Shown: positions 3,056 through 12,920 of the stretch, one piece after another
Position numbering within the stretch: position 1 is the first letter of the stretch
How the letters are laid out: each line of letters begins with the position of its first letter
From: a virus
Taxonomy: Duplodnaviria; Heunggongvirae; Uroviricota; Caudoviricetes
DNA length: 12,920 bases
Virus record (IMG/VR): IMGVR_UViG_2609459769_000019
Direction: 5' to 3' (one strand)
Position numbers and translations under genes: made by a program
Notes under the pieces: generated by a model
Told to the model about the DNA's origin: nothing
Seen by the model: only the letters and a program-made list of their open reading frames with translations
Database searches by the model: none

Positions 3056-4387
3056 TTAATCAATTTGTCCTTCCAGCACCTCAAGCATTCCGCCCCGGAT
3101 ATCCGATTTCAGCTTATCCATATTGATAACCCGGTAAGCATTCACAATCACATCCAGTTTGTCGGGCTGACGTTTCAGACTGTACGGTGCATTAACGGCA
3201 ATCTGCACACTGCCATCCTGATTTTCCACGATATACATCAGATTGTTGTGCCGTTTGTCCCACAGTACCGCTTTTGGCCTTGCCAGCATTGCCGGTAAGC
3301 GCCCGAAGTCCTCCGGCGTCAGAGCGATGCCGTCATTCTGATGTTTCACACTGTCCGCATGGAGCACATTTTTACCGCTCATCGCCAGCAGGCGGGCCGG
3401 TGGCGTTCCCGTCCGGCTTTCCACTGCCTGCGCAATGCTTTCAGTCATAAAGCCCAGCGTGCGGATATCGTTACCACCTCGCCGGGTCTGCATGATGTTT
3501 TTTGCCCAGATGCGGAACGCCAGCTGCCGCTCCGGGCTGTTGTTCATCTCCTGAACCACCATTTCCCGTAACGCCGGGCTTTTCACCTCGATCAGTTTGC
3601 GGATCAGCGCCTGGTCTGTGCCGAACGCTGCCGAGCCGGGGTTATATGACCAGCCCACATCCGGTGTCATGGTTCTGGTGCCATCTGAATATGTGGTCAC
3701 CGGCATTTCTCTGACTTCTCCGGTCTGTTTATCCACGCCAGCCTCAACATTGCGGGTGGAGAGATGATCCTCACCGGATGAAACGGATAACCCCATTGCA
3801 TCCAGACGGGCCTGAGACAATGGCCGCACACGGCAGCGGCAGTTCCAGCCATTGGGCGGGTAGTGTGTTTTCCAGAACGGATCGTCATAGCGGAATACCA
3901 GACCGTTAAGGGCGGAATGCGACGGGCGGGTACGGCTGTCCATGACCGCCACATACTGCCAGAACGGATGCGTGTCCGTGTTGTTCATCATCTGCGTGTA
4001 ACGCCCGGCATTGTAAGCCACACGGGTGTTCACGTTGTAAATCAGCGCCAGACGACGGGGACTGCCCAGCTGCACTTCTTCCGCGTTACCGTCGCTGTCC
4101 ACCACAATCTGCTTTCCCCACCATCCCAGCTTTTGCAGGCGTGGCGTCAGCGTGCGGATAAATGCTTTCTGTGAAATTCCCTCATCAATGGCCCGCTGCA
4201 CTTCGGCCTGTAACGTGGTCACCACATCCAGGCGTGCCGCTTTTGCTGCCGTGAATGAGCGGGCATGAACATCCGCGGCTGTTTCGAACCAGTTCCAGCT
4301 GATATGCGCCCCTTTGACACGGAAGTATGCTACCGCCTCTTTTGAGGGAAGCGTGGCGGCATAACCTAAATCAATCCCCTGTGTCAT
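3056..4387 (-). CDS. F: Head morphogenesis protein (Mu F-like, gp30 family), 443 aa
   Basis: ATG at 4387 overlapping the portal gene end by 17 nt; conserved WNCRCRV-type motif; position between portal and G as in Mu. Confidence 0.75.
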   Translation of the reverse strand: MTQGIDLGYAATLPSKEAVAYFRVKGAHISWNWFETAADVHARSFTAAKAARLDVVTTLQAEVQRAIDEGISQKAFIRTLTPRLQKLGWWGKQIVVDSDGNAEEVQLGSPRRLALIYNVNTRVAYNAGRYTQMMNNTDTHPFWQYVAVMDSRTRPSHSALNGLVFRYDDPFWKTHYPPNGWNCRCRVRPLSQARLDAMGLSVSSGEDHLSTRNVEAGVDKQTGEVREMPVTTYSDGTRTMTPDVGWSYNPGSAAFGTDQALIRKLIEVKSPALREMVVQEMNNSPERQLAFRIWAKNIMQTRRGGNDIRTLGFMTESIAQAVESRTGTPPARLLAMSGKNVLHADSVKHQNDGIALTPEDFGRLPAMLARPKAVLWDKRHNNLMYIVENQDGSVQIAVNAPYSLKRQPDKLDVIVNAYRVINMDKLKSDIRGGMLEVLEGQID

Positions 4388-5960: not shown

Positions 5961-7627
5961 TACCAGCCCCCCCGATCAAATTCATGATATGCCTCATCGT
6001 CATCACGATAACCGCCCTCCATTGCCCGCGACCGCTCCGGTAGCGCCTGACAGGCTGATTCATCCAGGATGAAGCCCTCCATGTATGACGCCCGGTTTGC
6101 CATACAGAGCGCCACGGCAAAATCACCATGGCGGCGGGCGTTCGCAGCCGTTGCGTTCTGGTCCTTCGTGCGCCCCTTGTCGATTTGCGGGATACCATTC
6201 ACTACCTTCACATGGCGCAAATCATCAAGCGTGGTCTGATGGCGGGCGACGAGGATATTCTGATCTTCAAACTCGGCTTTCAGTTTTGGCATCCACTCGC
6301 CGTACCACTTCGGCGACAACATCACGCAGTCGATGATATCCGGGCCAAAGGCCAGCAGTGCGGCCTCTGCCAGATAGCCGCCGTTACCGGTGGCGTCGAA
6401 CGCCGCACCGACCAGCGCCGGAACGCGGGTCAGGATGTACATCATCACCTGTTCCTGCTGGGCATACGGCAGGTTGCGCAGCTCCACGCGAAACACCTCG
6501 CGCTTTGCCAGGGATTCGGTGATTTCCAGCAGCACAAAGCAGGACAGGTCACCGGTGCGGGCAAAGTCTTCCCCGAAGCTGAAGCGGGAACGGGGATTTA
6601 ATTTCTCTAAAAGCGGTTTTAAATGTTCTTCACACCAGGTTAAAACTTCCGATTCACGCAGCCATGCGGCACGGCTGATGAAGTTGTCCGGGGCTTCAAA
6701 CGTCAGAATCGGGATGTCGCGGATCATCGCCATTTCAATAAGCGCGTGGGGGATATAGGCACCGCCGGATTTTTTCGGGATACAGCCGTATTCCTCGTCG
6801 GCATCCTCACGGGTCGGGGCGTTTTTGTAGAGATCATCACGCCATTTCTGCTCGCTTTCCGGTGACCATTCCTGATCGGTGACGTAACAGATACGACGGT
6901 ACAGCCCGTCCGCAATGGCATCATCCAGGGTTATGCGGTGGACGCTGTAATCCTTGCGCCCCTCGCGGGCTTCCTGAATGTACTGATTAAACAGATTATC
7001 GACGCCGTTATGCGTGGAGATAATACGCACGCGCGCGCCCCACATAGTGAGCGCCATTGCCGCCTTGAGAAGCTCATCCAGTGACTCGTGGAACGCGGCT
7101 TCATCAATCACCACATCCCCCTGAAGGCCGCGCAGGTTTGACGGACGGGAAGACAATGCCTGAATTTTGAATCCACTGTTCGGAAAGCGGATCATGTAGG
7201 TCAAAATTTCTTCTTTTTTATCCCGATCCCAGAATGTCTGCTCATACACATCAGCATCTGCCAGCTGGTTAAAGGCACGGGAGAACAGCGCGCAGGCAGA
7301 AATATATTCCAGCGCCATCTCCTGCTTTGATCCCACATAAAACACATTGCGGCCACCACGACGCTTCGGTTTTGCAGCAGTAATGACGTTACGCCCGGCT
7401 TCCGCCCAGGTAAGACCGGTGCGGCGGGATTTCTCCGCGATGCAGACCTGACTTTCATCTGCAAACCAGCGGGCCTGATAATCCAGAAACACCGGCATAT
7501 CACCGGGCAAATCAAGGCTGTCCGGCACATCCACGCCCAGCAGGGCTTTTTCACCTGACAGATCAATTTTGCGGGGAGGCGTCATTTGCATCAGTGAAGG
7601 CGACGTTTCTCTGGCTTTGTTCATCAT
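5960..7627 (-). CDS. Terminase large subunit (Mu gp28-like), 555 aa
   Basis: ATGATG at 7627-7622 overlapping the upstream stop (ATGA); N-terminal ATPase-like region (Walker-B-like VVIDEAAF) and C-terminal nuclease-like region; followed by the portal. Confidence 0.8.
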   Translation of the reverse strand: MMNKARETSPSLMQMTPPRKIDLSGEKALLGVDVPDSLDLPGDMPVFLDYQARWFADESQVCIAEKSRRTGLTWAEAGRNVITAAKPKRRGGRNVFYVGSKQEMALEYISACALFSRAFNQLADADVYEQTFWDRDKKEEILTYMIRFPNSGFKIQALSSRPSNLRGLQGDVVIDEAAFHESLDELLKAAMALTMWGARVRIISTHNGVDNLFNQYIQEAREGRKDYSVHRITLDDAIADGLYRRICYVTDQEWSPESEQKWRDDLYKNAPTREDADEEYGCIPKKSGGAYIPHALIEMAMIRDIPILTFEAPDNFISRAAWLRESEVLTWCEEHLKPLLEKLNPRSRFSFGEDFARTGDLSCFVLLEITESLAKREVFRVELRNLPYAQQEQVMMYILTRVPALVGAAFDATGNGGYLAEAALLAFGPDIIDCVMLSPKWYGEWMPKLKAEFEDQNILVARHQTTLDDLRHVKVVNGIPQIDKGRTKDQNATAANARRHGDFAVALCMANRASYMEGFILDESACQALPERSRAMEGGYRDDDEAYHEFDRGGW

Positions 7628-7872
7628 GCTTTACCTGTCAGAATGCTTTTGATTCGGGACTCAAGCTCTTCAGTCATCACGTCCACGCCGCTCAACTCAT
7701 CAGTGGCAGCCTCTGCCAGCAGCGAATGCAGTTGTTCCAGGGATATTTCCCCGGCAATGCTGAGTTCAGTCAACTCACGACATACCTTTATGGTTTCAGG
7801 AGGTAACTGTGTTGCAAGACTGAATGCTTTCTGATGGGCACTGCTCATCAGTGAGCGGTTATCTGTTGCCAT
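7624..7872 (-). CDS. Small protein (82 aa), paralogous to the C-terminus of the gp27-like protein
   Basis: ATG at 7872 preceded by AGGAGGTGA with 5-nt spacer; C-terminus ATDELSGVDVMTEELESRIKSILTGKA parallels gp27 C-terminus VTDELRGVDGMSEQIEFRIRQMLLGKA; nucleotide similarity visible between about 7627-7720 and 7886-7985. Confidence 0.5.
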   Translation of the reverse strand: MATDNRSLMSSAHQKAFSLATQLPPETIKVCRELTELSIAGEISLEQLHSLLAEAATDELSGVDVMTEELESRIKSILTGKA

Positions 7873-7882
7873 GATTCACCTC

Positions 7883-8464
7883 CTACGCCTTACCCAGCAG
7901 CATCTGCCTGATACGGAATTCGATCTGCTCGCTCATGCCATCCACGCCGCGCAACTCATCGGTGACCGCATTCGCCATCTCTTCAGCAAATGCGGCCCGG
8001 ATTTCTTTTTCACGCTTAATGCTGCGCTCGGCGGCACTTTCTGCACGCTGTGCCGACAGGAGGATGTCCTTAATAAGGCGCATATCCACATCGCTGTCGC
8101 TGTTCAGGGATTCGGTGGCGGCACGCAGACGGCGGTACATCAGGGCACGGGACATCTCCAGAATCAGTGCCGTGGTTTCACCGGTCGGCTTATCCCCCAG
8201 TTCGGCCATCATGGCTTTTGTCTGCTCGCGTAAATCACGCAGATTACGGGCAATCAGCTCATTACGGGAGGCTTCCCGGCTGATGGCCGCCGGTGAGAGC
8301 TGCTGCTCTTCCGGCAGACCTGCTTCACGGATCAGACGGTTGATTTCCTCGCGGATCTGGACCTGCGTCAGACGTTTTTCACGCAGCATTTCCAGCAGCG
8401 GCTTACGGATGCTGTCGGGGAGCAAATCCACCTTGCGTACACGGCCACGCGTCGGCTTATCCAT
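7883..8464 (-). CDS. Mu gp27-like protein (DUF3486), putative terminase small subunit / packaging DNA-recognition protein, 193 aa
   Basis: ATG at 8464 with AAGGGGG upstream; charged, coiled-coil-rich protein directly upstream of the large terminase as in Mu. Confidence 0.65.
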   Translation of the reverse strand: MDKPTRGRVRKVDLLPDSIRKPLLEMLREKRLTQVQIREEINRLIREAGLPEEQQLSPAAISREASRNELIARNLRDLREQTKAMMAELGDKPTGETTALILEMSRALMYRRLRAATESLNSDSDVDMRLIKDILLSAQRAESAAERSIKREKEIRAAFAEEMANAVTDELRGVDGMSEQIEFRIRQMLLGKA

Positions 8465-8466
8465 CG

Positions 8467-8757
8467 TTACCCCCTTGCGCGTGGTTTCTTCACACCCGGA
8501 ACAGTGGCACGACCTTCCGCCACATCCTGACCCCGGCCGGTCAGTTCAGCGATGAAATAACCGTTAACAAGCGTGCGCTTACGCACCAGTCCCTGCTCAG
8601 CAAGCCAGGCAATGTGGGTGTGAACGGTGTCGCGGGACACGCGGTGGCCGTAATCATCCAGGCAGTCCTGAAGCACGGATTCGCCCAGTTCGCCGTTGTA
8701 ATCCGCCAGCGACCGCAGAATGACAAGACGCTGATCTTCAGTAATGAAATCACTCAT
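8467..8757 (-). CDS. Small protein at the Mu gp26 position, possible winged-helix-like fold, 96 aa
   Basis: ATG at 8757 with AAGGAA upstream; overlaps the preceding gene by 8 nt; function not assignable from sequence. Confidence 0.5.
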   Translation of the reverse strand: MSDFITEDQRLVILRSLADYNGELGESVLQDCLDDYGHRVSRDTVHTHIAWLAEQGLVRKRTLVNGYFIAELTGRGQDVAEGRATVPGVKKPRARG

Positions 8758-9061
8758 TGTGTTTTTTCCTTACAGCCTGCTCCAGCAGCAGTTCGTTCTG
8801 ATGGGAGACGGATTTCAGGGTGGCATTGGTGGCCTTAAGCTCACCGCGCAGGGTGGTGATTTCGATATTGAGTCTGTTCACCTCCTGCTGCGTGGGCAGG
8901 CCGGAAATCCGGCTCTCCACCCGCTCAACCCGGTCGGAGAGTTTTTCAAAGGCCTCGCGGGGGACAAAGGTTTTGCGCATCAGCGCCATGAAGATCCCCC
9001 CGGCTGTGGCCGTTGCCGACAGGATCGGCACGACATAATCTTTAACGATGCTGACCCACAT
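8750..9061 (-). CDS. Mu gp25-like membrane protein (candidate releasin of the lysis cassette), 103 aa
   Basis: ATG at 9061 with GGAGG upstream; N-terminal hydrophobic segment VVPILSATATAGGIFMALM followed by a charged coiled-coil-like domain; lies between the lysis genes and the packaging genes. Confidence 0.45.
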   Translation of the reverse strand: MWVSIVKDYVVPILSATATAGGIFMALMRKTFVPREAFEKLSDRVERVESRISGLPTQQEVNRLNIEITTLRGELKATNATLKSVSHQNELLLEQAVRKKHNE

Positions 9062-10516: not shown

Positions 10517-10939
10517 TCAGAAAAGCCGGGGCTGCGTGCGCTCCTGATGCAGGCGACGCTGGTTGCGGATAACGGAGTAAATCTGCGTCTCTGACATCTG
10601 GTAATGGCGGCGCAGGGTTTCAATTTTTTCACCCTGGCTCCAGCGGGAAAAAATCTCATTATTGCGCAGTTCGGTGAAAAGGGATTCACCGACCGGGAGA
10701 TAATAACCACGCCCGCCCATGTACCCGGCCTGTGCGGCCGCAACCTTACGGGCAAGCATTCCCGCCTGAGCAGATTCAATCCCCTGACGGTGCAGTTCAG
10801 CACTGATCACATCAACCAGGTCACGCAGCGTGCCGGGCCAGTTCTTTTTCAGCTCATCATCAGGAATATCATCCAGACGGTCAATCAGCGCGTGCAGCTG
10901 TTCGCTGTCACCAAACATGCTCATCTGTGTTTCAGCCAT
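10517..10939 (-). CDS. Mor/C-family transcriptional activator (140 aa; by size and position more likely the C-type late activator)
   Basis: ATG at 10939 with GGAGG 6 nt upstream; acidic N-terminus and basic C-terminal HTH-like region typical of Mor/C proteins; sits immediately upstream of lys. Confidence 0.75.
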   Translation of the reverse strand: MAETQMSMFGDSEQLHALIDRLDDIPDDELKKNWPGTLRDLVDVISAELHRQGIESAQAGMLARKVAAAQAGYMGGRGYYLPVGESLFTELRNNEIFSRWSQGEKIETLRRHYQMSETQIYSVIRNQRRLHQERTQPRLF

Positions 10940-11009: not shown

Positions 11010-11918
11010 TTAAAAAGGGGAGGATTCTTCATACAGCCTGCAAACGCGCTCATAACTCATCACTGTACGCGCTGACACCCGGCCTTTTTGTTTCACCACT
11101 TCCGGCAGTTTCTTCATTGCGCGGCGAATGGTGTCATAAGACGGCATGATATCGAGCATATAAGGCTCATCAGCGTGCCGGTACTGCCATTCAGCGACAA
11201 AATCCTCGTAAGCCTCGGTCATTGGTCGGCCGTTTGACTGGCGATACTGCGCCAGAAATTCGGGCAGCCAGTTAATATCTTCGGCTTTTATTTCCTGGCG
11301 CTTACCAGGTGCCAGCAAAAGCAGGCGTTCAGCGGCGTTCTGCGCCTTGTTAAAGGCTGCAATCCAGCGTTTCAGCGTGATTTCACTCAACGCACGGCTG
11401 TTTCCCTTTTTGGCGTTCGCCGTCTCAACCATTGCCACAATGCGCTCGTCCAGTTGCGAACGTGCCAGGTTGTCAACGATAAACCGGATAGCCTTCGCAC
11501 AGCTGAAACCAGGTTGTTGCGCGACTTTCAGAACTTCGCTGACGATCGCGATTCGTGCATCAGCCACCTGGCGCTGGTTTTCAGTCAGAGCATTAAGGCG
11601 TTCGACCATCAGTTGTGGTGATCCGCGATATGCCTCCACCGCATCAACCACGGCAGGCGAGCGTCTGGCCTTTGTCACCACTGGAGCCGGTGATTCATCG
11701 ACTTTTTGAGTCATCAGTTGCAGGGCGTAGCGTTCACGTAATGCCTGCTGCGTCACTTCAGGTAAACAGTCGATGCTGTATTCAGTTGCTTTAGAGCCTG
11801 AGCGACGACGGGAACAACAGCTTTTCCCTTGTACGTAACGTTGTAATGCCTGGCGAATACCTTTTGTTGTAGCAGGCATTCCGGGCGCGCCAATCAGTTC
11901 TTTTGCAATGACATACAT
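11010..11918 (-). CDS. Truncated Mu transposase A homologue: N-terminal DNA-binding domain only (302 aa), no DDE catalytic core
   Basis: ATG at 11918, 1 nt after the ner stop; N-terminus APGMPATTKGIRQALQRY...GSKATEYSIDCLPEVTQQALRER resembles the winged-helix enhancer-binding domain of MuA/Mu repressor as I remember it; ORF stops at about 300 aa against about 660 aa for full-length MuA; terminator follows directly. Confidence 0.55.
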   Translation of the reverse strand: MYVIAKELIGAPGMPATTKGIRQALQRYVQGKSCCSRRRSGSKATEYSIDCLPEVTQQALRERYALQLMTQKVDESPAPVVTKARRSPAVVDAVEAYRGSPQLMVERLNALTENQRQVADARIAIVSEVLKVAQQPGFSCAKAIRFIVDNLARSQLDERIVAMVETANAKKGNSRALSEITLKRWIAAFNKAQNAAERLLLLAPGKRQEIKAEDINWLPEFLAQYRQSNGRPMTEAYEDFVAEWQYRHADEPYMLDIMPSYDTIRRAMKKLPEVVKQKGRVSARTVMSYERVCRLYEESSPF

Positions 11919-11919
11919 A

Positions 11920-12168
11920 TCATGACGCCTTTCTCATATAGCTCTTAACCTGGTATCGACTGGGCCAGATTTCTTCAGGCGATACCCCAAGAGCATCAGC
12001 AATTATTTGCTGATACGGTCGGCAAGGAGTACGTAATACGCTTTTCAGCGAATCCCTGCTGTAACCAGCCTTTAAAGATAAAGAGCGCAGTGATAAGCCA
12101 GCCATGTGTAAGCGCGCCTTGATGATTTCAGGCGGCCAATCGTGATCTGAAACTTCTCTTCTACTCAT
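11920..12168 (-). CDS. ner: Ner-like DNA-binding regulator (82 aa)
   Basis: ATG at 12168 with AGAGGAAG upstream; ...LSLRSLSLKAGYSRDSLKSVL...QQIIADALGVSPEEIWPSRY matches the Mu Ner family signature (IIA.AL...P...WPSRY); divergent from the repressor gene. Confidence 0.85.
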   Translation of the reverse strand: MSRREVSDHDWPPEIIKARLHMAGLSLRSLSLKAGYSRDSLKSVLRTPCRPYQQIIADALGVSPEEIWPSRYQVKSYMRKAS

Positions 12169-12335
12169 ACTTCCTCTATTCTAAAAAGTTACCCGCGCGG
12201 ATATTCGTGCGGATATCTGTACGGGTAAATAATAGAACAAACAAAAGAACCAAATCAAGGTATTTTGTTCTTTTTATTCTTTGCGGTGTTTTTGTTATTA
12301 ATATCAATAAGATAAATAAAAAGGAACCTGAGAGC
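12169..12335. promoter_or_regulatory. Divergent immunity control region between ner and the repressor gene (candidate operators and promoters)
   Basis: AT-rich 167-bp spacer; tandem 12-bp direct repeat CGYGCGGATATY at 12194-12205 and 12206-12217, flanked by inverted TTACCCG (12189-12195) / CGGGTAA (12222-12228); second inverted repeat AGAACAAA (12234-12241) / TTTGTTCT (12264-12271); TAGAAT -10-like hexamer on the minus strand. Confidence 0.5.
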
Positions 12336-12920
12336 ATGAACATGAAAAACAGTTCTTTTCTCGACGAAGGAAAAGAACCAGTGATCGAACGGATTTTTCG
12401 TCTTGCAGAGCGTTACAAATCGAGAAGTGAGGCGGCTAGAGCATGGGGAATAAACGTTCAGACATTGCAGAACTACTACAAAAGGAGAAACAATCAGCCG
12501 CCACCACAACCAAGAAAGCACCATCTCCAGAACATTGCAGAAAGAGAACATGTATCTATGGAGTGGCTAGTCAATGGTTATGGTGATGAGCCAAGCATGA
12601 AAAAAGAACCAATTGAACAAACAAAAAGAACAAAAAAACAAAGAATTGATGATAGTGATTCCATCATCATGAGGGCGTGGGACTCGCTAACTTCATCTGA
12701 ACAAGAGATTTTGTCCAACTTATTGATCAGAAAAGGGGCCGAACTACTAACCGTTTTGCTTGATACAGATATTCAAAAACTGCACTCATTGAGCGGAGTC
12801 AAAAGAGCACTAGCATTGAGTCTACAAGAGTTACCCGATGATACTGTAAGAGAGATTTATGAAGAATGTGAAGCTAAGGTTAATCATTTAAATGTAACCC
12901 AGAAAAAGGCTGGTGCGTAA
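12336..12920 (+). CDS. Prophage repressor (194 aa): HTH N-terminal domain joined to a Mu c-like C-terminal domain
   Basis: ATG at 12336 (second ATG at 12342) preceded by AAGGAA; the track's longer ORF starts at a GTG at 12207 inside the operator region; N-terminus has a classical HTH (RSEAARAWGINVQTLQNY); C-terminal segment LLIRKGAELLTVLLDTDIQKLHSLSGVKRALALSLQELPDDTVREI resembles the Mu repressor C-terminal region from memory; gene is distinctly AT-rich. Confidence 0.65.
   Translation: MNMKNSSFLDEGKEPVIERIFRLAERYKSRSEAARAWGINVQTLQNYYKRRNNQPPPQPRKHHLQNIAEREHVSMEWLVNGYGDEPSMKKEPIEQTKRTKKQRIDDSDSIIMRAWDSLTSSEQEILSNLLIRKGAELLTVLLDTDIQKLHSLSGVKRALALSLQELPDDTVREIYEECEAKVNHLNVTQKKAGA

Follow-up and report, generated by a model that had tools for sequence, protein, structure and literature searches.

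A putative recombination chimera at the junction of the genes for the two terminase subunits, small and large, of an Escherichia coli Mu-like prophage

The stretch of DNA analysed here, hereafter the window, is the IMG/VR virus record IMGVR_UViG_2609459769_000019, 12,920 nucleotides (nt) long, which is part of an Escherichia coli Mu-like prophage whose late genes all lie on the minus strand. In order of transcription, these encode Mor, a lysozyme, the open reading frames (ORFs) of the spanin region, a TraR/DksA-like protein, a DUF2730 protein, a gp26-like protein, the gp27-like small terminase subunit (TerS), an 82-codon ORF (ORF82), the large terminase subunit (TerL), the portal, the MuF/gp30 minor head protein, G and I. 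The subject of this work is ORF82, a two-part ORF which is a minority variant among its relatives and carries coupling signals on both sides. The features of the TerS-TerL junction are the following, where pN/pS is the ratio of non-synonymous to synonymous differences.

7883-8464, minus strand: gp27-like TerS, 193 amino acids (aa), matching PF11985 (Phage_Mu_Gp27, E=3e-33) and phrog_426 (terminase small subunit, E=9e-55); pN/pS 0.04 among ORF82-bearing loci
7886-7978, minus strand: C-terminal tail of gp27 (codons 163-193, MANAVTDELRGVDGMSEQIEFRIRQMLLGKA), here called allele 'A'; all 12 changes counted among 7 loci are synonymous; G176, L190 and G191 invariant
7876-7884, minus strand: Shine-Dalgarno (SD) sequence of ORF82, AGGAGGTGA, read off the sequence
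7624-7872, minus strand: ORF82, 82 codons, start codon ATG 7870-7872, stop codon TGA 7624-7626
7720-7872, minus strand: N-terminal module (N-module) of ORF82, codons 1-51, assigned to a small-ORF family that is distantly related to the MuF N-terminus
7627-7719, minus strand: tail of ORF82, allele 'B', codons 52-82, LAEAATDELSGVDVMTEELESRIKSILTGKA, a copy of a gp27 tail
7622-7634, minus strand: overlap of the ORF82 stop and the TerL start, GGTAAAGCATGATG, with an SD-like GGTAAAG in the last ORF82 codons
5960-7627, minus strand: TerL-like large terminase, 554/555 aa, matching phrog_2 (terminase large subunit, E=6e-43); pN/pS 0.03-0.09
about 7580-7965, minus strand: hypervariable junction cassette, made up of the last ~25 gp27 codons, ORF82 and the first ~16 TerL codons, delimited by sliding identity

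The ribosome-binding site of ORF82 is strong, as a first-pass annotation of the window had noted: its SD sequence overlaps the gp27 stop codon TAG (7883-7885) and ends 3 nt ahead of the ORF82 ATG. At the other end, the ORF82 stop codon overlaps two candidate TerL start codons, the first ATG through ATGA, in agreement with the same annotation, and the second through TGATG. The second ATG is the TerL start in RefSeq and the sole start retained in alleles L004, L045 and L046. This overlap is nearly identical to its counterpart GGTAAAGCCTGATG in relatives that lack the ORF, and the ORF82-TerL junction GGTAAAGCATGATGAA is near-identical to the gp27-TerL junction GGTAAAGCCTGATGAA of an ORF-less allele. 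In Mu, 7 nt and no gene separate gp27 from gp28, as had also been stated, and the layout ahead of gp28 is the same, namely LLGKA stop, SD and ATG; so is the layout ahead of a 65-codon ORF (ORF65) found in Citrobacter and Salmonella. In a survey across species, the gp27 stop and the TerL start overlapped in 18 of the 24 gp27-family loci with a locatable TerL ORF; stop/start coupling from gp27 to TerL is the norm of the family.

Scans of positions 7300-8300 returned nothing promoter-like anywhere in that range. Of terminator-like sites they gave three (1.1 expected), none of which lies between the genes: each is either within TerL or gp27 or on the other strand. Therefore, ORF82 is placed within the late operon. 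The only opposite-strand ORFs in the TerS-TerL stretch are mechanical antisense ORFs of 63 and 70 aa. RNA folding at the TerL start of the three junction types described below gave z-scores of +1.1, -0.1 and -0.6, with no indication of a sequestering structure.

The similarity between the end of ORF82 and the C-terminus of gp27, seen by eye in the first-pass annotation, held up when the alignment was run. Specifically, ORF82 residues 52-82 align without gaps to residues 163-193 of the resident gp27 (BLASTP, 18/31 identical or 58%, 24/31 positive, E=3e-10), and the corresponding DNA segments, in frame, are identical at 62 of 93 positions. The PHROG profile of ORF82 matched gp27 162-193 with E=6e-8, and hhalign aligned only ORF82 residues 53-82, to gp27 164-193. 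The two tails are therefore truly homologous, over the segments that the first-pass annotation had pointed to. The tail is nearer, though, to the gp27 of an ORF-less relative than to the resident one: 22 of 31 residues are identical (71%, E=2e-12), together with 72 of 93 nt, and in the last 45 nt the matches are 35/45 with the ORF-less allele and 27/45 with the resident gp27. In the same way, the synonymous divergence (pS) of the tail is 0.42 from the former and 0.66 from the latter. Identity to the tail of Mu gp27 was 53% by tblastn. Both tail B and the TerL N-terminus of the window resemble the corresponding pair of the ORF-less allele, and the window and locus L009 combine gp27 tail allele A with TerL N-termini that differ strongly from each other.

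Among 22 gp27-family sequences, from Escherichia to Vibrio, G176, L190 and G191 of the tail are invariant, and A164, I185 and A193 are nearly so. Every ORF82 allele carries V at the position of G176 and T at that of L190, and keeps the A, the I and G191; the A193 position is occupied by A, S or V.

A different origin is indicated for the N-module. ORF82 residues 4-46 matched the Citrobacter ORF65 (BLASTP, 15/43 identical or 35%, E=4e-7), hhalign aligned the two over 45 columns with E=3.9e-5, and one profile search recovered both groups. ORF65 lies in the gp27-TerL gap of Citrobacter braakii (L014, 3590-3787), where its SD is laid out in the same way and its stop overlaps the TerL start through ATGA, and the profile search retrieved many 65-aa alleles from Salmonella enterica, invariably between gp27 and TerL (Salmonella loci L047-L050, 2501-2698). 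None of the Salmonella and Citrobacter proteins (P0015-P0029) carries a gp27-like tail; they end in ...LEDKVKKV. ORF82 shares with this small-ORF family the similarity of the helical core, the position after gp27, an SD of its own and a stop overlapping the TerL start, and was assigned to it.

The first-pass annotation had read ORF82 as the diverged product of a partial tandem duplication of gp27, a view which our data do not sustain, in that its N-terminal ~50 residues are unlike gp27 and its tail is nearer to another allele. Whole-ORF duplication of gp27 was rejected on hhalign comparisons with an alignment of 22 gp27 members, which gave E=0.33 for the N-module and E=0.14 for ORF65, neither of them significant; ORF65 37-56 shows 40% identity to gp27 141-160, but over 20 columns and with the same E=0.14.

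ORF65 did find a relative in MuF, for which two further features of the window are needed.

3056-4387, minus strand: MuF/gp30 minor head protein, with the Pfam domain PF04233 at gp30 58-187
4127-4297, minus strand: MuF/gp30 residues 31-87, the segment homologous to the small-ORF family

ORF65 matched phrog_220 (MuF) with E=2.9e-5, and its member P0015 matched residues 31-78 of the gp30 of the window with E=4e-6 (BLASTP). An hhalign run of the ORF65 family against four MuF N-termini aligned 57 columns to MuF 31-87 (probability 94.5%, E=8e-8), compared to E=0.43 for the reversed-sequence control, and the ORF65 hidden Markov model detected Mu F with E=5.6e-8 in hmmsearch, the best of 2,000 shuffled sequences reaching E=1.2. 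Unexpectedly, these results identify ORF65 as a stand-alone, diverged homologue of the N-terminal helices of MuF/gp30. It is not a MuF core domain, since it covers only MuF 31-87, while PF04233 spans 58-187 of gp30. ORF82 itself aligned to MuF in the same register without reaching significance (hhalign, E=0.06-0.12), so that its link to MuF is transitive, through ORF65.

To place ORF82 among its relatives, a 1.1-kb probe was compared with 5,426 complete E. coli genomes, 230 of which matched. The ORF82 segment was present in 25 of the 230; in the remaining ~205 (~89%), only the last ~95-108 nt of ORF82 matched, and these landed on the gp27 3' end. This ORF-less form is represented by L002, a Mu-like phage inserted in a Stx2c phage, in which a 193-aa gp27 with the tail ...GMSEQLESRIKGILLGKA has its stop directly overlapping the TerL start. 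In a third form, L009 (5001-5323), the same gp27 and SD are followed by a 67-aa ORF (ORF67), which has its first ~34 residues in common with ORF82 and then diverges. Beyond it lie 120 untranslated nt and a TerL that is uncoupled from any upstream ORF and whose N-terminus is longer and of another sequence (MSKRTGEEKIKPDTGLIKLSPPRKIDL...). Across the three junction forms, the flanking gp27 and TerL sequences of the window are 0.88-1.00 identical to L002 and L009 (mostly at least 0.93), and sliding identity drops only at ~7580-7965. Frameshifted, fused and in-frame-deleted versions of ORF82 are also found in the databases (P0003, P0004, P0010 and P0011). A tblastn search of 50,697 phage records with ORF82 found the whole ORF in none of them, and only gp27 tails.

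When codons 1-17 of ORF82 (7822-7872) were compared with L003 and L005, two diverged haplotypes emerged, MATDNRSLMSSAHQKAF and ME(K/T)NIRALIISAR(H/R)EAF, with a pS of 0.39, while the next 34 codons were near-identical between alleles (pS 0.02). This suggests a recombination breakpoint inside ORF82, beyond the haplotype block of codons 1-17.

Other occupants of the TerS-TerL gap were observed in further gp27-family prophages. In Vibrio paucivorans (L037) and Enterovibrio nigricans (L038), at 3582-3788 of both loci, it holds an unrelated 68-aa ORF, assigned to phrog_1761 and phrog_5120 (unknown function), whose start overlaps the gp27 stop (ATAATG), and in L043 (3565-3655) it holds a 91-nt spacer. 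Insertion at this gap seems to have recurred.

The selective constraint on ORF82 was assessed among the ORF82-bearing loci. Pairwise ratios of non-synonymous to synonymous rates (dN/dS, Nei-Gojobori) ranged from 0.30 to 1.05 for ORF82, compared to 0-0.04 for gp26, 0-0.05 for gp27 (one near-identical pair, 0.16) and 0.03-0.09 for TerL (one near-identical pair, 0.50). By minimum-change counts over seven distinct alleles, ORF82 accumulated 13 synonymous and 31 non-synonymous changes, and gp27 53 and 6 (Fisher p=2e-10); in the 31-codon tail, the counts were 5 and 9 for ORF82 and 12 and 0 for gp27 (Fisher p=7e-4), and in the N-module of the E. coli alleles they were 8 and 22. The synonymous fraction of ORF82, 0.30, is close to the neutral expectation of 0.27 (p=0.42), and the chance of meeting no stop codon over 44 neutral substitutions is 0.26. 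Therefore, neither the pattern of changes nor the open frame gives evidence of selection at the protein level: ORF82 changes at roughly the pace expected under neutrality, and the genes beside it are under tight constraint. In the ORF65 relatives, pN/pS was 0.29, versus 0.07 for gp27 and 0.08 for TerL at the same loci, with 24 synonymous and 30 non-synonymous changes (p=0.005 against neutral), that is, moderate purifying selection of a kind which the ORF82 counts do not display. What the first-pass annotation had named as grounds for refuting its reading applies in part: the homology itself stands, but the ORF is absent from 205 of the 230 probe-positive genomes and coding-type conservation is missing within E. 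coli.

Structure prediction and family searches were then considered. The AlphaFold2 model of ORF82 (mean predicted local distance difference test score, pLDDT, 69.6) comprises helices at 3-21, 25-39 and 45-60, a disordered linker at 60-66 and a short terminal helix at 68-79, while that of gp27, of low confidence (pLDDT 55.6) and used for secondary structure only, shows a long helix that gives way to a flexible linker (172-178) and then to a short helix (179-189). The predicted ending, a linker plus a short helix, is thus the same in the two models. A Foldseek search of the PDB with the ORF82 model gave a best E of 2.3, and sequence searches of the PDB with gp27 and gp30 returned no relatives. 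A Pfam scan of ORF82 gave no match to PF11985 even at E≤10, the profile of ~173 positions being far from covered at full length, and scans of ORF82, ORF65 and ORF67 against Pfam, NCBIfam and PADLOC (for ORF67 without NCBIfam) found nothing credible. Likewise, phmmer against 1.8 billion representatives recovered nothing beyond the cluster of ORF82 itself, ORF67 (P0012) and some repetitive proteins that have no connection with phage packaging. The protein family is already catalogued, since ORF82 is covered over its full length by phrog_30922, a PHROGs v4 family of unknown function (E=6.9e-52, residues 2-82 aligned with positions 2-82 of an 82-position profile); the RefSeq entry is the hypothetical protein WP_000179787.1. 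The PHROGs and RefSeq entries record no function, no composite origin and no relationship of the small-ORF family with MuF, and the literature was not searched on the origin or the MuF link.

All together, we consider it probable, if by no means certain, that ORF82 is a chimera produced by recombination within the hypervariable cassette at the TerS-TerL junction in a lineage of enterobacterial Mu-like prophages, and that it has kept a ribosome relay to TerL. The alignments trace its first ~50 codons to a small late gene, whose Salmonella and Citrobacter form is 65 aa long. They trace its last 31 codons, and with them the stop/start overlap and the opening codons of TerL, to the 3' end of a gp27 allele of the type that most E. 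coli relatives have joined straight to TerL. In the simplest history, two phages, one with the order gp27-small ORF-TerL and the other with the order gp27-TerL, would have undergone an illegitimate in-frame crossover, and the gp27-like tail would be a recombination scar. That tail would preserve the translation context of TerL, namely the SD-like GGTAAAG and the TGATG/ATGA overlap, and because these are kept, ribosomes could be relayed from gp27 to ORF82 and on to TerL, as they would be from gp27 to TerL elsewhere in the family. The ORF82 protein is probably made. Since its sequence in E. coli drifts almost neutrally, a conserved role of the tail in binding TerL or competing for it seems unlikely.

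Several points weigh against this interpretation. The substitution counts are crude, as they come from a minimum-change method applied to few alleles with recombination visible in codons 1-17. All seven distinct full-length ORF82 alleles keep exactly 82 codons and the start codon, along with a strong SD, and for this reason some selection for an intact frame or protein is possible. In addition, the purifying selection on ORF65 shows that the N-module family is a genuine gene, and ORF82 may have retained the function of that gene. The direction of events could also be reversed, the ORF-less form then being the product of a deletion between the two tails. Finally, RNA folding gives no sign that TerL initiation depends structurally on upstream translation.

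The alternatives differ in the weight that they give to the tail. An accessory 'moron' reading leaves the tail irrelevant, and attributes to the small-ORF family, ORF82 included, a function of its own, either as an antidote or anti-defence protein resembling anti-Tab or as a mimic of the MuF N-terminus. The TerS-TerL gap is indeed a known accessory-gene site in Pseudomonas Mu-like phages (PMC10884400), unrelated small ORFs occupy it in Vibrio and Enterovibrio, and ORF65, besides being under purifying selection, has a constant length across many Salmonella alleles. ORF82, however, shows no anti-Tab similarity and no opposite-strand partner gene, the insert measures only ~260 nt, the PADLOC, Pfam and NCBIfam scans are empty, and the E. 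coli N-module is itself dominated by non-synonymous changes; we regard this explanation as unlikely. Slightly less likely still is that ORF82 acts as a decoy or modulator, with its tail binding TerL and competing with the TerS-TerL contact, or tuning it, at a ratio fixed by translational coupling. The C-terminal tails of the lambda (gpNu1) and P22 (gp3) TerS proteins bind the N-terminal region of TerL (PMC9611059), and such a role would fit the joint presence of a TerS tail and the first ~16 TerL codons in the variable cassette, the resemblance by descent of tail B and the TerL N-terminus of the window to the ORF-less allele pair, the linker and short helix predicted in both proteins, the strong SD and the frame that is open in every full-length allele. 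Nevertheless, it is the ORF82 tail that has accumulated non-synonymous changes where the gp27 tail has none, and that has replaced the family-invariant G176 and L190; the gene is missing from ~89% of the related prophage-bearing E. coli genomes and from Mu; the function of tail allele A with very different TerL N-termini speaks against tight pairing; and TerL binding by the Mu gp27 tail is drawn by analogy only. The evolutionary evidence thus goes against the idea of competition for TerL raised in the first-pass annotation, which we consider unsupported.

A variant that we hold to be quite improbable would make ORF82 a two-headed adaptor or decoy, in which a MuF-N-like three-helix module, taking up the contacts of the MuF N-terminus, possibly with the portal, is joined to a TerS tail docking on the TerL N-terminus. 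Tail B and the adjacent TerL N-terminus could then be a cognate pair by descent, the resident gp27 having tail allele A. If this were true, ORF82 would bridge or gate the TerL-portal-TerS assembly, or exclude the terminase of co-resident Mu-like phages, and its fast evolution would reflect conflict and not decay. The least probable reading, which we judge very unlikely, has the resident gp27 duplicating its 3' part in tandem and in cis, followed by divergence, with the whole of ORF82 descending from gp27. The tail homology is real, and a weak collinear similarity lies just upstream of the tail (the ORF65 37-56/gp27 141-160 segment, with a similar pattern in the DNA); on the other hand, the N-module and ORF65 match the gp27 family without significance while ORF65 matches MuF with significance, the tail is nearer to a non-resident gp27 allele, and relatives have the N-module without any tail.

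Comparison with known systems helps to delimit the proposed chimera. Like Mu gp27 (D) and the PF11985 family, ORF82 possesses, in its last 31 residues, a homologue of the conserved C-terminal tail; unlike them, it has neither the N-terminal DNA-binding region nor the long central helices, and it evolves almost neutrally where gp27 is strongly constrained. With the 65-aa Salmonella and Citrobacter proteins it has in common the position, the SD, the spacer and the stop overlapping the TerL start, but it is longer (82 versus 65 aa), it carries a gp27-like tail and it lacks detectable purifying selection. With respect to MuF, Mu gp30 (F) and SPP1 gp7 (PF04233), the last of which binds the portal (PMC5576092), the similarity of the small-ORF family is confined to an N-terminal segment of ~55 residues; it lacks the remainder of the MuF domain as well as MuF_C. 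Anti-Tab (gp30) of the Pseudomonas Mu-like phage JBD26 is, in turn, the product of a small (~83 aa) late gene between TerS and TerL that overlaps TerS by 1 bp (PMC10884400). ORF82 resembles it as a small late-operon gene in the TerS-TerL gap, anti-Tab being translationally coupled to TerS; the difference is that anti-Tab is not assembled from packaging-protein fragments, as ORF82 appears to be. BLASTP of ORF82 and ORF65 against the JBD26 anti-Tab gave no alignment at E≤100, and no Tab-like divergent partner lies between TerS and TerL, so ORF82 was not assigned to the Tab/anti-Tab systems.

If the chimera interpretation is correct, ORF82 would offer a clear worked example of phage mosaicism, in which a TerS tail and a segment of the MuF N-terminus were combined into a new ORF without loss of the relay into TerL. 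ORF82 also marks the TerS-TerL junction as a slot for accessory genes in enterobacterial Mu-like phages, one already known in Pseudomonas Mu-like phages, where Tab and anti-Tab occupy it. For functional work, the better candidate is probably the MuF-N-like 65-aa gene of Salmonella, which is under purifying selection. Were the tail copy to bind TerL, it would be a natural peptide probe for the unmapped Mu-type TerS-TerL interface, which the present evidence makes unlikely.

The remaining late-region features of the window are given below.

8467-8757, minus strand: gp26-like winged-helix protein
8750-9061, minus strand: DUF2730/gp25-like gene
between the spanin-region ORFs and the DUF2730 gene, minus strand: TraR/DksA-like protein
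spanin region, minus strand: ORFs for which the matching RefSeq record has a hypothetical protein and an Rz1-like LysC
3' of Mor in transcription order, minus strand: lysozyme
10517-10939, minus strand: Mor

Upstream of Mor, a 302-aa ORF (11010-11918, minus strand) contains only the N-terminal DNA-binding domain of the Mu transposase (PF02316). Homology to L001, L005 and L009 ends at ~11080, within the 3' end of gemA, and these loci do not reach upstream of gemA. This prophage copy seems to have lost the core of the transposase, B and all of the early region as far as gemA, and therefore looks defective. At the prophage end, an AT-rich stretch bears a 237-aa ORF (12207-12920, plus strand) that runs past the window edge and has no match in Pfam; it is probably the repressor, judged by its position divergent from a Ner-like HTH_35 gene (11920-12168).

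A second low-identity patch was observed at ~8840-8930, in the DUF2730/gp25-like gene. Here identity to L002 and L009 falls to 0.63-0.78 with sharp bounds, the flanks being 0.82-0.98 identical to the same loci, while the window is 0.98-1.00 identical to L003 over the patch. By this pattern of identities, the patch qualifies as another putative mosaic cassette.

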